Shown one piece after another: positions 8,674 through 61,997 of a stretch of 64,000 bases of DNA (position 1 is the stretch's first letter; each line of letters opens with the position of its first letter). A program made the position numbers and the translations under genes. Under the pieces are notes generated by a model. That model was not told the DNA's origin. It was given only the letters and a program-made list of their open reading frames with translations, and did not search any database. Where the stretch lies: NCBI RefSeq assembly GCF_964213995.1, contig NC_135813.1:94612001-94676000 (forward strand). The letters are read 5' to 3'. The stretch is from Mustelus asterias (Eukaryota).

Positions 8674-8798
8674 TGTAGAGATGCCGGCATTGGACTGGGG
8701 TGGGTACAGTAATAAGTATCACAACACCAGGTTAAAGTCCAACAGGTTTATTTGGAATAACGAGCTTCCGGAACGCTGCTCCTTCATCAGGTGACTCA
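8674..8798 (-). mobile_element. Penelope-like terminal fragment with a mutated hammerhead motif
   Basis: Homologous to 16825-16960; minus strand CTGATGA-A-GGAGC agc GTTCC-GGAA-GCTC (GAAA box changed to GGAA). Confidence 0.75.
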
Positions 8799-15454: not shown

Positions 15455-16821
15455 CTACAAAACAAAGAGAACATTTTTATGTTAAGATGACTAATTCTCC
15501 TTTTCATAGCAGTTTGGAGTTTTTGGATCTCCACACATTACAAGACATGGAATGAAATAAAGTAAAAAGTGGTAGGTGTATTATGCATATTTAGCAACCA
15601 ACTAGTCGGATTATAACAACAAAAAAGTGGCATTTATACACCCTGTTTATAGCTCCCATGCTTGTATATCATGCATTGTGAACAGAACCCACATTATTCA
15701 ATGATTTAATAGAGGTGTCCAAAAGGGAGGGGTCTTTAGAGTAAATAGGGAGAATCTGTTTCCACTACGAGAAAGATCAGTAACCAGAGGATATTGGCTT
15801 AAATTAATTGATAAAATTAACAAAGGGGAAGATGAGACATTTTAAAGCAGCGAGTTATGATCTGGAAAGCACTTGTATATATTTGAAAGGGAAGAAACAG
15901 TATTCCCTTTTGCCAGAGGATCAGTCTCCCCTTTATTTAATGTGGTCAAAGAAACCCTCCCTTGAAATAGTCACAAAATACCAAAGCACTTTACAAATTC
16001 ACCAGACTGGAGAACTTTACTACATTAAGGTTGAAAAACTGGAAAGAATACAACATAATGTAGCATATTTCGATTGCTTTGGTAGATTACTAAAGAACAG
16101 CTGATAGTCTTACAACACTTTAAACTTCTGATGACATGAACCATTTGCTTGTCATGGTATACAGTGAAAAAGAAAACTCATGGTAACAACATCCAGATAC
16201 CCTGAAAGCTCTCTATCTTGCCACCTCTCATCTAAAAACACCTCAAAACCTACTCTTTGATCACCTTACCTGAAGCTTCTACCGCTGCTCAGTGTGTAGT
16301 GTCCATTTAGGCATAACACTTCAGGAAGGATGTGAAGGCATTAGAGATTATGCATAATTTCCACGAAAGATGAAGGGCTTCAGTTACAGAATCACAATTG
16401 TTACAGCGCAGAGAACCACCATTTAGTCCATTGTGTCTCCACTGACTCTCGGAACAAACTTAATGCCTTTTTTGTGGTCACGGTCAAGACGTGAAGGAAA
16501 ATATGCATAAAGTTTTTTTTGTGCTTTTCAAAATGGACAATTGCTGAGTTGACAAGATAGAAGCCAGCATGTGACCAGCTGGAGCTAGCAGTTTCAAAGT
16601 TAACAAAGGTCAACATCTCAAATGCCTGGAATCTAACACTCCTTGCATTGCATAAACATTCCAGCCACGTCAAGACAATGGCCAAGCAGACGGTTGGTCT
16701 GCTCCAGCAACTTTGAACAAAGACAGCCCTTTGCATATCCTAATCTCCAACAATGGTGCTAATGATCTAAGCAGTAAATGCTCTAACACAATGGTTTCTA
16801 CAAGGGGGCTTCATTTAGTCA

Positions 16822-17572
16822 TGATGTGGAGATGCCGGCGTTGGACTGGGGTAAACACAGTAAGAAGTTTAACAACACCAGATTAAAGTCCAACAGGTTT
16901 ATTTGGTAGCAAAAGCCACACAAGCTTTCGGAGCTCTAAGCCCCTTCTTCAGGTGAGTGGGAATTCTGTTCACAAACAGAGCTTATAAAGACACAGACTC
17001 AATTTACATGAATAATGGTTGGAATGCGAATACTTACAACTAATCAAGTCTTTAAGAAACAAAACAATGTGAATGGAGAGAGCACCAAGACAGGCTAAAA
17101 AGATGTGTATTGTCTCCAGACAAGACAGCCAGTGAAACTCTGCAGGTCCACGCAACTGTGGGAGTTACAAATAGTGTGACATGAACCCAATATGATGTAG
17201 CATATTTGTACATAATATTTATGAACGGCCTCAACCGGGATATTGGGTTCATGTCACACTATTTGTAACTCCCACAGTTGCGTGGACCTGCAGCGTTTCA
17301 CTGGCTGTCTTGTCTGGAGACAATACACATCTTTTTAGCCTGTCTTGGTGCTCTCTCCATTCACATTGTTTTGTTTCTTAAAGACTTGATTAGTTGCAAG
17401 TATGCGCATTCCAACCATTATTCATGTAAATTGAGTCTGTGTCTTTATAAACTCTGTTTGTGAACAGAATTCCCACTCACCTGAAGAAGGGGCTTAGAGC
17501 TCCGAAAGCTTGTGTGGCTTTTGCTACCAAATAAACCTGTTGGACTTTAACCTGGTGTTGTTAAACTTCTTA
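16822..17572. mobile_element. Penelope-like element inserted as a 335-bp inverted repeat, with a hammerhead motif in each arm
   Basis: Arms 16859-17193 and 17240-17574; TSD CTTCATTTAGTCA 16809-16821 and 17573-17585; ORF tail GLNRDIGFMSHYL* 17227-17268. Confidence 0.88.
17472..17517 (+). ncRNA. Minimal type I hammerhead ribozyme motif (mirror copy on the minus strand at ~16916-16961)
   Basis: CAC-CTGAAGA-A-GGGGC ttaga GCTCC-GAAA-GCTT-GTG: core boxes, helix II, palindromic helix III (AAGCTT), short helix I. Confidence 0.75.
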
Positions 17573-17696
17573 CTTCATTTAGTCAACCAGAGAGCCGAGA
17601 GCCACAACACACCACAGGTAGAATGGCTTTCTTCTGTGCTATAACAATTGTGCAAATCTATATTTTTCATTTCTATGACCTGCCTGGTGAATTTAC

Positions 17697-17792
17697 GATG
17701 TGGAGATGCCGGCGTTGGACTGGGGTAAGCACAGTAAGAAGTTTCACAACACCAGGTTAAAGTCCATTAACCTGGTGTTGTGAGACTTCTTA
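17697..17792. mobile_element. Miniature fold-back copy of the same Penelope-like family
   Basis: Same terminal sequence (gatgtggagatgccggcgttggactgggg...); ~28-bp inverted arms; TSD CTGGTGMATTTAC 17684-17696 and 17793-17805. Confidence 0.8.
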
Positions 17793-17824
17793 CTGGTGCA
17801 TTTACTACATTATAAATGCATGCC

Positions 17825-19490
17825 ATTGATTACTTTGTCTTCACAGGTTCTTCTTCAGCTCATCAGTGAGTATGATTGTCCACCTAAGAAACTCTGTGTT
17901 ACTGGTCATGGGTTCTGTGGGTCCTTGCCAGATTGATGAGCCCGGTCCTAGAGCCGTATCTTCAACCACACACTTGGTAGTTATTTCTGGGAGGTGGGTT
18001 CAGTCCTTGGACTCCAGATTGCTGGTAATCCTTTCTCAGGCTCTTTTTCCAGGCCTCCTCCTGTTGTTGGGTGTCCGAAGAATTGTGTCCCCTCAATCAG
18101 GAGGTTTCTCCAATAGGTCTCTTAGGTGTCCCAGGCGTTGGCGTCTTTATTGCATTTCTGGAGGTAAGACTTGAGGGTGTCTTTGAAGTGCTTTTTTTGG
18201 CTTCCTCTTGGTAGTGGCACCTTCCTTGAGCTGGGCAAATAAGATTTGCTTTGGCAGCCAGGACTCTGACATCTTAATGAGAACTGCCTTCACTTTGTTT
18301 TGGCCAACCCAGTGGAGCTGGTTTCGGATGATCATGGCCTTGATGCTGGTGCTCTTGGCTCCTTCAAGGACACCGATGTGAGTAAGCCTGTCCTCTCAGC
18401 TAATAGAGAATCTGTCTCAGATAGTGTTGATGGTACCTGTCCAGGGCATTGAGTTGCCATCTGTAAGTAATCCAAGTTTTTGAGCCATATAAAAGAGTTG
18501 GGAGGACGACTGCCTTGTACATGAGGATCTTGGTGTCAGCATGAATGTCGCTGTCAAAGATTCTCATCCTTGGGGCTCACAGATTGGATACAATGTTGGA
18601 TCTCCGTATCGATAACAGGCTTAGATGAGAAGTGGCTCCCCAAGCAGGGGAAATGTTCCACGTTTAGGAGGGCTTTTCCGTTGATCTTAACAAGGGAGAG
18701 CCTGGATCTTGTGCTAAAGGTTGTTAAAGGACTTGAGTCTTCAAGGTTGATGCAGAGACCGATTTGTTGGTATGCTTCGTGAAGGTGTCAAGCATTGCTT
18801 GGAGGCTTTCTTCTGAGAGAGCGGAGATGGCGATGTCATCCGCATACTGAAGCTCCACGAGCGATGTCAGTTTTGTTCTTGGATTTCAACCGGCTGAGGT
18901 TCAAACGTTTTCTGTCCATCCTGTAGACTACGTCCACTCCATTGGGAAGCTTGTTTTTGACAAGAAGAATAGTGGTGATGAAGATGGAGAAACAGGGTGG
19001 TGGTGATGACACATCCTTGCTTAACCTTAAAGGTGGTCTTATCTCCATTGGTGAGACCTGTCGCCAATTTCCTGTTGTGGAGGAGTCAGAGGATGTTGAA
19101 GAATTTCTCTGACCAGCCGGCCTTTGACAGGATTCTCCATTGCACTTCCCGACCAACTGAGTAAAAAGCCTTAGTCAGATTGATGAAGGCCATGTTGGGT
19201 GGTTGATGTTGCTCCTGGCATTTCTCTTGAAGTTGTCCAGCAGTGAAAATCATGTTTGCTGTTCCATGGTTTGGTCGGAAGCCACAATGGCTTTCCAGAA
19301 AGATTACCTCAGAGTGGGAGCAGGCAGCTCGCAAGGAGTTGGGCAATAATCTTCCCGGTGATGGAGAGTAGGGAGATTCCTCTGTAGTTCCCACAATCCT
19401 CCGTCTCCTTTCTGGAAGGTGGTGGTGATGACAGCATCCTTAAGATCAGCACAAATGTCTTCTCTGTCCCAGATTTTTCAGGGGTCAGCA
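17825..19490 (-). mobile_element. Decayed RTE-clade LINE reverse transcriptase fragment
   Basis: Fragmented ORFs NYRGISLLSITGKIIA, CGFRPNHGTANMIF..LQEKCQEQHQP, VKQGCV; many frameshifts. Confidence 0.8.
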
Positions 19491-20998
19491 ACTATACTAA
19501 CATACCTTAGTTACACTTCAATTAAAATGTTACGTTGCTCCTAAAAATTGGACCACAGTTAAAGTTTGGCTATGCAGTAGAACCTTTCTTAATGACTGCT
19601 ACAATGTTCATTCTGGTGTAAACCTGTTCCCCGTTCCATGATAGTGTAGACTCATACGCTGGAATTGCAAAATGAAAATTGAAGCAAACATGGAAAGAAA
19701 AAATATTTTTCAGTGCTTAAAGATGTCACTTCTGCAGATCATGGACAATCTACATTTCACAAATAGTGTCCTAATCCTTGGATGCAAACTTCTGTTTACA
19801 TATTCTCTGGTTTTCAGCTGTTTCAATAATATGTGGAAAAGATCACCACATTTTTCAGTTTTATTTTACACTGGATTTTGTTTTCAGTTTTGTGTCAAGA
19901 AGCACTCCCATGGGTGAGCTTTGCTCGCTACGCACCAGAGGGTAGTTTTGCCTAACTTGACATTTTGAAAAAATGACTAACAGGCCTAGTGATCCAACAG
20001 AGAACTCTCTTCACTTCGTTTTGGTTTACTGGTTTTAATCAAATCCCCTAATAGGATTTCCCTTGGAAGATGGTAGAGTAACATGCTGAAGAACATAAAC
20101 AGAAGTAGGCTATATCTGCTCAAGTCTGCTCTGCCATTCAGTAAGATCACTGCTGAACTTCTACGTCAATTACATTTTCCCAACTTGGATCCATTACACT
20201 TAGCCCCCTCATCTAAGTCATTGATATTGACTGTAAATAAGCACCAATTCAAAGTTACACCCTGATTATCCTGAAAAAGACCCATTTATTTCCACACTGT
20301 TTTGCGTCTGTTAACCAATTCTCAATCCAGGTTAATATATCACCTGTCTCATTAGTTCTAACCTTGTGCGAAATCACATGCAGCACCTTATCTAATGCCT
20401 TCCAAAAATCCAAAGATACTACGTCTACTGATTCCCCTTTAGCTATCCTGCTACTTACTGGCCTCTTGATCTCAGTTTTCTCTTTCCCTCCTTAGCTGAA
20501 CTGTGAGGCTACATTTTCTAATCTTTCATTCTAAGGGAGACTGTAACTTAGACCACTGTCATTCTGCAGAATGGCAGTGATAACATAGCTTTGGTACTTA
20601 TTAAGCTTAAGTATCTTAAGTAGAAAGCAATGATCATGCCTATTTTACTAATCTAGAATTTATTCTTTCATGGGTTTATTAAACTCATTCGAAATATTTG
20701 TATTTGAACTGAATGGATTGGCCCCTCTTTTAGACGTTTGGTTTAGAAACATCTAAAATCTGTGACTTTTGTATTAAAATAATACACTGAATGCTGTTTT
20801 TTAACCTGTTTAATTTCTTAAAGTTCAAGAAGCCAAGACTGTATTACATCAGTGACAAAATGCTTCATTTACGTGCAATCATGTATTGTAAAGTGTGTTG
20901 TTTTGACATTGCAGTAAATAAGCCATTGTTGCATAACATTTATATTTTTCTCAGCAGCAAAAGCATCGTCACTTCTATGGCCTTTTCAGTTATCTAAC

Positions 20999-41039: not shown

Positions 41040-41990
41040 TGGCTGGACTTACCGAGGACGCTGCAGTCGGCGCAGATGTCGTTACTCCTCAACCTTTTCG
41101 ACATGGACAGAGACAGTTGGTCAACTCTACCTTCCAATCTGGATTTTTAATACGCCCCTGAAGTAAAAAAAAAATTTTTTTTTTAAAAAAGGCTGAACTT
41201 TAATCGGACTTCAGTTCTGACGGGCCGGCTGCCATCGGCACCAAGTTAGCGCTCGGCGGCAGTTCCTGTCAGACTCGCCTCTGGCTCGAGCGGCTGGCAA
41301 ACGCCGAATGGCACCCTGGGATCTCGGAGGACCGCCCGGCGCCGCCCCCGCTGCCGCGCATGCGCCGGTGGACGAATCCAACACAGGAGTTGTAAGGAGG
41401 GGGGGCACTGAAATATTTAAATACAGTTTCAGGAGGAAAAGCCTTTTCTGTGGCATTTCTGCCCCCCAGAAAGTAATGCAAATTAGTTAAATTTGCAACG
41501 GGGTTGAATAAGGTCAGTCAAGACCTCATTTTGTCGGTTGTGGAGAGGGTCGTTATCAGCAGTGTTTACCCACTGGCAGCACATGCGACTTGAGTTTGGA
41601 CCGAACCACAGTGGCAGCGGGGTGGAGGGGGTGATGCTGGTGGCCAAATGGTTAATGGCTACAGAAAATGAAACAAAGTTTCAGGATCGCTCAGGGAGCA
41701 TTAATTGTAACTTCTCCGTCTGTAAGAGCGCAGCAGGGCGAAGTGACACTCAGATATTTAAAGAACTGGCAGTGTGTCTCCATCGCCCGCTCCTCTAGGT
41801 TGGGCGGGTTGCATTTCCTTTCTGTCTATCTCTTCCTGTGAAGTTTTTTTTTGGGGGAAGTTTTTAAGTTTTGTTTTGGTTTCTCTCCCCTCCCGCCGTC
41901 GCTGTTTCACTTCGGAGGGAGGGAGGGGGATTTGGGGGGGGAAACAGGTCGGGGGGTCCAGGGCAGGGTGAAGCTGAAAGGACTTTAGGA
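41040..41990. promoter_or_regulatory. CpG-rich bidirectional promoter and 5' UTR region between GIT2 and ANKRD13A
   Basis: Divergent ATGs at 41104(-) and 41990(+); high CpG density; NRF1-type palindrome GCGCATGCGC 41356-41365; GC box 41342-41347; octamer ATGCAAAT 41476-41483. Confidence 0.8.
41053..41104 (-). CDS. GIT2: GIT2 coding exon 1 (MSKRLRSNDICADCSVL/D), start of ARF-GAP zinc finger
   Basis: ATG at 41104; translation matches the GIT2 N-terminus MSKRLRS..CADC; 52 nt; GTAAG donor. Confidence 0.95.
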
Positions 41991-48860: not shown

Positions 48861-48888
48861 ATACCTAACTATCATTTTGTCCACACAG

Positions 48889-49024
48889 CATGATATTGAA
48901 GCAGTTGATCCACGGGGCCGGACTCCGTTGCATCTCGCTGTCTCACTGGGACACTTGGAATGTGTCAACATGCTGCTTCGGAACAATGCCTCTGTCGACA
49001 AGGAGAATGCCAAGGGATGGACAG
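48889..49024 (+). CDS. ANKRD13A: ANKRD13A exon 2 ([45 protein letters not shown])
   Basis: AG/GT boundaries, 136 nt, ankyrin repeat. Confidence 0.94.
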
Positions 49025-61745: not shown

Positions 61746-61777
61746 AAAAACAAAGCATACCCTGGCACCCTTGACAC

Positions 61778-61997
61778 AATAAGAGTTTTAACAACACCAG
61801 GTTAAAGTCCAACAGGTTTATTTCGTAGCAAATACCAACCCTGTGTTCATTCTCGTGACCAACAAAATCAGAATGAGATGGTGGTTTGATAAGTGGAATG
61901 GTATTTGCTACCAAATAAACCTGTTGGACTTTAACCTGGTGTTGTTAAAACTCTTACTGTGTTCACCCCAGTCCAATGCCGGCATCTCCACATCATG
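61778..61997. mobile_element. Fold-back Penelope-like element with a host-derived spacer
   Basis: Arms 61780-61837 and 61899-61956; TSD ACCCTTGRCAC 61767-61777 and 61998-62008. Confidence 0.85.

Follow-up and report, generated by a model that had tools for sequence, protein, structure and literature searches.

The stretch of DNA analysed here, which we call the window, comprises 64,000 nucleotides of the 3.68-Gb genome of the shark Mustelus asterias (C13:94612001-94676000), and one of its introns holds a long inverted repeat with a hammerhead ribozyme motif in each arm. The locus raises the questions of what this element is, how its head-to-head arrangement arose and whether it has any role in the gene around it. 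Our best overall explanation, which we hold with a probability of roughly 0.7, is that of a 5'-truncated head-to-head copy of a Neptune-type Penelope-like element (PLE), likely a passenger in the intron and likely produced by priming on two strands by a dimeric reverse transcriptase-endonuclease at one staggered cut.

The insertion and its family

Exons of a GIT-family gene lie on the minus strand near positions 41074, 31001, 28952, 26396, 22094, 21117 and 15411. The best PDB match of exon 2 was GIT2 (6jmt, E 5e-25), with GIT1 chains absent among the matches, and we take the gene to be GIT2 rather than GIT1 also from the N-termini of the two proteins. The location in GIT2 intron 6 given by the original prediction is correct for the sixth coding intron on the minus strand; the number counts coding exons only and may be shifted by an upstream non-coding exon, an acceptor-like site being present upstream of the GIT2 ATG. 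An ankyrin-repeat exon at about 48880-49020 (plus strand) belongs to a gene arranged head-to-head with GIT2, presumably ANKRD13-like. The features of the locus, including the target-site duplication (TSD) and the pseudo-LTR (pLTR), are as follows.

15455-20998, minus: GIT2 intron separating coding exons 6 and 7, its limits determined manually from the exon contexts
16809-16821: left TSD copy, of which the last 6 nt match the continuation of the element over the start codon
16822-17193, minus: long tail-bearing arm with the last ORF codons, pLTR and tail, sense in the GIT2 pre-mRNA
about 16822-16860, minus: PLE tail of ~38 nt, in the left arm only, ending where the ORF of the parent unit has its start codon
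16898-16903, minus: AATAAA in GIT2 sense, within the predicted duplex
16919-16955, minus: left-arm minimal type I hammerhead, the copy in the GIT2 pre-mRNA, predicted cut 16922/16921
17194-17224: AT-rich 31-nt filler at the arm junction
17225-17572, plus: short tailless arm, starting 15 nt deeper in the ORF than the long arm and stopping ~38 nt short of the start codon
17227-17268, plus: final 13 codons of the RT/GIY-YIG ORF with its stop (GLNRDIGFMSHYL*)
17478-17514, plus: right-arm minimal type I hammerhead, antisense to GIT2, predicted cut 17511/17512
17573-17585: right TSD copy
17588-17590, plus: CAG half-site of the family target motif (with GG in place of TG in the left half-site, 16806-16807)
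17697-17795: another fold-back of this family, independent and 99 bp long, located 111 bp to the right and made up of a 70-nt tail arm and a 29-nt tailless arm

Inside a perfect 13-bp TSD (CTTCATTTAGTCA), found at 16809-16821 and 17573-17585 as predicted, the insertion measures 751 bp (16822-17572). The inverted repeat runs over 16852-17193 and 17240-17581, and its part inside the TSD pairs over 333 bp (16861-17193 with 17240-17572; 335 bp in the original prediction) with exactly five differences, where about five had been counted by eye. Three of these are private to this copy and two are rare, and the same minor alleles occur in both arms. The 46-nt spacer kept its length on re-examination, and its composition could be refined to a 31-nt filler (17194-17224) followed by 15 nt of ORF present in the right arm alone. 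The extra terminus noted on the left side only is the PLE tail, and the peptide GLNRDIGFMSHYL* encoded at 17227-17268 (+) is indeed the C-terminus of intact parent ORFs. Thirteen nucleotides of the filler (17195-17207) also occur at 16058-16070, ~750 bp left of the insertion, a match which may be templated or due to chance.

That the structure is an artefact of assembly can practically be dismissed: misassembly of long inverted repeats is generally known to occur, but the five arm differences, the TSD, the filler and the unequal ends are at odds with it, as is the like anatomy of 118 loci, and a read-derived contig covers 16527-16841, even if its element side is just 20 nt long, too short to count as bridging, and it perhaps stems from the assembly's own sample. 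Read depth over the arms is ~1e5 times that of the flank, a value that is not a copy number. The left flank (16587-16821) is an old repeat with 75-84% identity among the 40 matches listed elsewhere; when an empty site was sought through paralogues of this repeat, none of 11 continued into the right flank, and among contigs from other samples and from a relative none spanned the insertion site. One contig of a relative (depth 5.8) has 30 extra bases with a 15-bp duplication at 16757-16771, ~50 bp left of the insertion; these bases are similar to two short segments from the 5' end of the PLE ORF and could possibly be a micro-insertion by the same machinery.

That the insertion represents a head-to-head, 5'-truncated copy from a young and very abundant PLE family of Neptune type is hardly in doubt. 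The element matches many genomic loci at 98-99% identity, and the Penelope-like identity and the autonomous parent for which a search had been proposed were both confirmed in the same genome: 20 stretches taken at ORF 5' matches yielded six intact 892-aa ORFs starting with MTT and a seventh starting with MNT, which combine a reverse transcriptase (RT) with a C-terminal GIY-YIG endonuclease (EN). The six are 98.7-99.5% identical and have RYIDD and VVY...YIGET motifs; five of them carry the linker CHSNLCKTC (CX4CxxC) between RT and EN. Pfam RVT_1 was found in all three parents searched (E<=1.2e-9) and GIY-YIG at 24.5 bits against a cut-off of 22.6. The closest named proteins, with 84-94% identity, are from sharks (Heptranchias perlo, Scyliorhinus torazame and Mustelus asterias), and no solved structure resembled the 892-aa ORF by sequence. 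In natural tandems the ORF begins directly after the tail, and partial tandems form pLTRs at L024, L041/L042 and L056. A CX2-5CxxC linker defines membership of the Neptune clade according to the accessible text of PMC8557442; the linker is common to Neptune and Nematis, and the vertebrate host favours Neptune (10.64898/2026.07.22.740005, from the part available). We rejected a fold-back DNA transposon or MITE on the basis of the asymmetric ends, the arm lengths of 29 to 5865 nt across family fold-backs and the RT encoded by the parent. A shark epsin-2 gene model (P0059) includes RT sequence 87% identical to the family, possibly through mis-annotation or exonisation.

In 80 unselected 10-kb stretches from contigs C1-C12 we counted 58 pLTR ends and 16 fold-backs with TSD, about one per 50 kb, from which ~70,000 long family hairpins are estimated genome-wide, an extrapolation from large contigs only; at such a number the family would supply intronic dsRNA on a large scale in this shark. 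The copy in the GIT2 intron is ordinary within its family. The fold-back at 17697-17795 has a 13-bp TSD with one mismatch and a complete target site (see below), and older family copies lie in the window at 61774-61995 (a fold-back) and 8674-8794. The youth ascribed to the element is supported in a relative sense, by comparison with other repeats.

Target site, fixed ends and the origin of two arms

In all 118 TSD-bearing fold-backs, one end falls at the start codon and the other lies ~37 nt upstream of it. This asymmetry was seen in the discovery set (50/50, one end near the ATG at -4 to +8, the other at -42 to -32), at 18/18 further loci (from 51 stretches, 33 of them without a TSD pair), in unselected DNA (16/16) and in short fold-backs (34/34; of 40 in all, six lacked a TSD, one of these being tailless at both ends). 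Pairing in the discovery loci (L001-L090) gave 51 rows, of which L057 9245-9642, with two tailless ends, was dropped as it reused an already paired left end. Exceptions without TSD are L057 (tail/tail) and L228 (tailless/tailless). In the unselected set 26/58 arms were unpaired, some being cut by stretch ends; single-armed insertions are thus numerous, and two-sided priming is therefore not obligatory. For the Poseidon element of the anole, RT was mapped in vitro to two start sites, one on each side of the tail, with both strands being extended, and the accessible text draws no link from these start sites to the inverted arrangement (PMC11167929).

Most TSDs of the family measure 12-14 bp, and most are flanked by a TG-N16-CA motif with two-fold symmetry, which often reads CTG...CAG. 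Counting outward from the TSD edges, C occupies position +2 in 68/100 half-sites and A position +3 in 71/100, while CA at +2 is found in 65/100 against a control mean of 7.9. The complete motif brackets the TSD in 37 of the 50 discovery sites (among which three pairs share a target within a repeat and are not independent), against 3.2% at random positions, and it was correctly predicted at 16/18 and 24/34 held-out new sites. It is weaker among older unselected copies (9/16 at spacing 16 in a looser test, 4 at spacing 13), and the GIT2-intron copy has the right half-site only. Apparent hotspots, that is identical or near-identical targets in other repeats, link L037/L078, L002/L023, L028/L043, L028/L133 and L060/L115/L126/L241, with the tail arm on opposite sides in one case. 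A target consensus for PLEs is absent from the accessible portions of PMC9977147, PMC12910113 and the text supplements of PMC11167929.

The ends of the element overlap the TSD more than expected: by 1.58 and 1.81 nt on average, against 0.74 and 0.85 under a permutation null (P 0.0004 and 0.0002; n=26 per end, loci not selected by their ends). The GIT2-intron copy has overlaps of 6 and 2 nt, and the 6-nt match of the left TSD end to the element's continuation is possibly a trace of primer-template pairing. Arm reach was compared in the 68 fold-backs of the discovery set and the 18 further loci; L021 and L030 were excluded for nested sequence, and 64 of the other 66 could be resolved. Among these, 31 have the longer reach on the tailless side and 21 on the tail side, while both arms extend equally far in 12. 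Junctions of these 64 consist of overlaps (31), blunt joints (6), fillers of up to 60 nt (25) and longer fillers (2). Some fillers are made of short tail or ORF-start pieces (L179:6224, L179:6405 and the L058 junction), which suggests, from their sequence, that the RT may re-prime at its start sites.

Together these features probably reflect two-sided target-primed reverse transcription by a dimer. The TSDs of 12-14 bp within a symmetric TG-N16-CA would correspond to its first step, the binding of a dimer to a spaced palindrome. Two GIY-YIG domains would then nick 2 nt inside each half-site and leave 3' overhangs of 12-13 nt, and each 3'-OH would prime a cDNA at one of two RT start sites, aided by 1-4 nt of pairing. 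From the end positions observed, one cDNA would be primed at the ATG site and the other ~37 nt upstream. Truncation points differ between the arms, which join through short overlaps or fillers, as would result if two antisense cDNAs were end-joined. A predicted homodimer of residues 1-330 with an interface at residues 42-80 scored 0.46, against 0.02 for the best of three controls; its runs share at least 36% of contacts with pLDDT of at least 62. The mark used for this score was reached by 21/30 microbial pairs and 0/23 single chains, and for eukaryotes by 17/29 pairs (7/16 in animals), 1/7 pairs without an older solved relative and 0/30 single chains. The model, a prediction and no demonstration of binding, supports a homodimer formed through residues 42-80, the nuclease domain not being involved. 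Against the two-sided mechanism, the accessible text of PMC11167929 reports homology-free priming, a preference for ATT and no RNA ends at the hammerhead site.

The second arm might instead arise by self-priming or by a template switch onto antisense RNA or the first cDNA, with resolution by the endonuclease setting the tailless end. A scheme of this kind has been proposed for rotifer Penelopes from palindromes at inverted junctions (PMC3846280), the tail has been ascribed to EN-mediated resolution (PMC8557442; both as far as their accessible text goes), and in our data palindromic AAGCTT joints are common, 12/64 pairs reach equally far, and the arms share a source haplotype in 37/54 pairs, against 8.5 by random pairing, and rare variants in 11/54. 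The shared haplotype fits use in cis of the RNA of one locus and also arm-to-arm copying. In 31/64 pairs, including the GIT2-intron copy, neither arm was copied from the other because the tailless arm reaches further, and copying of the first cDNA is excluded there since part of the tailless arm is absent from the tail arm; a switch onto antisense RNA stays compatible with the arm data. The symmetry of the target motif, the enrichment of overlaps at both ends and the resemblance in kind of both ends to the in-vitro RT start sites (PMC11167929, accessible text) also argue against such a second-arm origin, which we regard as unlikely, and we retain two-sided priming by a dimer.

The hammerhead and the GIT2 transcript

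A minimal-hammerhead descriptor matched exactly twice in the window, with cores at +17481 and -16952, and not at all in each of 200 shuffles, in line with the predicted motif in each arm. An Rfam search of the sequence returned no hammerhead model at E<=1, only miRNA-like hairpin matches. The conserved core, the extra base at 9/10.1, helix II and the palindromic 15.2-16.2 are all present; helix I has 3 contiguous bp versus the 4-5 bp of the minimal type I hammerhead, and the MFE fold places the predicted cut, positioned from standard hammerhead numbering, in the loop of another hairpin. Position 17 is U in the youngest subfamily and A or C in sister subfamilies, U at this position giving a poor cleavage triplet. 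Helix I and II sequences differ as well among subfamilies, with changes that are paired as judged by eye (CAC/GTG and CAT/ATG; G.U and A-U).

Genome-wide exact-pattern counts gave 1668 arms starting at the predicted cut versus 217 at -3 and 406 at -6, the latter control containing many palindromic joints, so that 5' ends at the cut are 4-8 times commoner than at the two upstream controls. Both arms start at the cut in 175 fold-backs versus 32 at +4 downstream. Among 40 short fold-backs the profile shows a modest peak, with 12/74 arms starting at the cut, 7 at +1, 8 at +2, 3, 3 and 1 at upstream positions and 14 at a palindromic joint, six intact sister-subfamily arms being left aside from this profile. 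Visual inspection of the 58 unselected arms showed no clear accumulation at the cut; the excess emerges from the genome-wide pattern counts only. As read from these end positions, the excess suggests run-off from cleaved RNA, and some template RNAs would then have cleaved themselves in vivo. Stalling of the RT, or a nuclease cut, at a GAAAGCU/GGCUUUU hairpin would be a less probable source of these ends, although one that deserves weight: this hairpin is part of the MFE fold and has the cut site in its loop, +1 and +2 are frequent too, and the downstream single-arm positions of the genome-wide counts are confounded by sister subfamilies. It accounts less well for the sharp upstream drop (1668 vs 217), for blunt joints in which both arms start exactly at the cut (14 among the first 50 on the list, counted by eye), and for joint letters which hint at a sister subfamily ending at the cut predicted for it. 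Self-cleavage of some templates is the reading we prefer.

For the GIT2 transcript itself, the minus-strand fold is one long duplex (-650.9 kcal/mol, z -81), so the proposed capacity of the pre-mRNA to form dsRNA is upheld. The hammerhead in this pre-mRNA is the left-arm copy (about 16955-16919), because GIT2 lies on the minus strand; the original prediction had named 17472-17517, which is in the wrong arm. Its description of "paired hammerheads" is likewise misleading, as there is one per strand and no transcript with two sense copies. The dimer that such ribozymes need is therefore impossible in cis, and a cis-dimeric ribozyme pair was rejected for the same opposite orientation; minimal PLE hammerheads require a partner or a protein (PMC4209133 and PMC11167929, accessible parts). 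The antisense arm is transcribed first in the GIT2 pre-mRNA, and the sense ribozyme is therefore likely masked on emergence and likely silent within the duplex. Editing of the duplex by ADAR is plausible by analogy with Penelope in a lizard, described as massively hyper-edited in the text available of PMC5625713, and would be nothing special here, because 16 such TSD fold-backs occur per 800 kb of unselected DNA.

A host function of the fold-back, as a regulated dsRNA or ribozyme switch acting through ADAR, Dicer, a masked poly(A) signal or a masked splice donor, could be argued from the great stability of the duplex, from an AATAAA in GIT2 sense (16903-16898) and a donor-like AG/GTGAGT (17482-17475, minus) that both fall within it, and from the hyper-edited lizard repeats (PMC5625713, same text). 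We consider it very improbable given the 16 comparable fold-backs in 800 kb, the few private or rare changes by which alone this copy departs from its family, the single sense ribozyme per transcript, and the Rfam matches, which are to miRNA precursors alone and far under gathering score; a miRNA precursor was itself rejected (best score 48 bits against a gathering threshold of 90). No support was found for a function in GIT2 or a regulatory role, both being unlikely. The insertion is likely a passenger, whose 333-bp duplex would hide the single sense ribozyme and perhaps be edited with no role for the host. As a single insertion it is of little importance, and the interest lies in the rules of the family.

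Comparison with known systems

These rules address two questions on which the literature covered is undecided, namely the inverted pLTRs with one-sided tail of PLEs and the cleavage of hammerheads in cells. In the strongest form, which we advance tentatively and at somewhat less than even odds, the shark Neptune family would be a sequence-specific dimeric retrotransposon that reads CTG-N16-CAG, makes a staggered cut of 12-13 nt and runs two RTs head-on from fixed RNA starts, with more than 1,600 copies recording hammerhead cleavage in vivo; if true, PLEs would have inverted pLTRs and a one-sided tail because two RTs run head-on from two fixed starts. The genome offers intact ORFs, a defined target, predicted nicks, RT starts and a cleavage site, and each step could be tested by the in-vitro assay published for the anole. 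In the openly accessible papers covered, beyond which a prior description is possible, we found no spaced palindromic PLE target, no origin of inverted pLTRs by two-sided priming and no truncation at a hammerhead cut. The insertion rules thus appear to be new to the literature.

In L1 twin priming both target strands prime cDNA, which yields an inversion flanked by a TSD, and in this the shark insertions are alike. However, the two L1 cDNAs cover separate parts of the RNA and the second start is variable, whereas both shark arms cover the pLTR and begin at two fixed starts.

The form of the insertion is that of other EN+ PLEs of Neptune/Nematis type, with a single ORF of RT and C-terminal GIY-YIG, a CX2-5CxxC linker and pLTRs from partial tandems; PLE insertions that are inverted and 5'-truncated, with a TSD, a hammerhead in the pLTR and a tail of 30-40 bp on one side, have indeed been described (PMC8557442; PMC3846280). 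According to the accessible text of the same two papers their targets are AT-rich or microsatellite, while the shark family uses mainly TG-N16-CA with 12-14-bp TSDs and has its tail/tailless asymmetry in 118/118 TSD fold-backs. With the minimal type I hammerheads of metazoan PLEs it shares the CUGANGA/GAAA core, the extra base at 9/10.1, G10.1-C11.1 and the palindromic 15.2-16.2, and pairs of such hammerheads on opposite strands 100-700 bp apart are already known (PMC4209133, accessible text); the 3 contiguous bp of helix I and U17 set the young shark subfamily apart. Non-LTR retrozymes are also short, non-autonomous hammerhead sequences akin to PLE pLTRs, chondrichthyan ones included, but they are tandem direct repeats, while the shark insertion is head-to-head and includes the ORF end (10.64898/2026.07.22.740005, part available); with one hammerhead per strand and head-to-head arms, a retrozyme was rejected for this locus.

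A close parallel is Poseidon PAc of Anolis, which has two RT starts flanking the tail, cutting and extension of both strands, a predicted dimer through an N-terminal helix and a pLTR hammerhead (PMC11167929). Its ORF starts inside the hammerhead, whereas the shark ATG lies ~100 nt downstream of the cut. For PAc the accessible text of that paper gives an ATT preference, priming free of homology and no RNA ends at the ribozyme site; in the shark family, in contrast, there is overlap between the ends and the TSD, and the predicted cut shows a surplus of 5' truncations.
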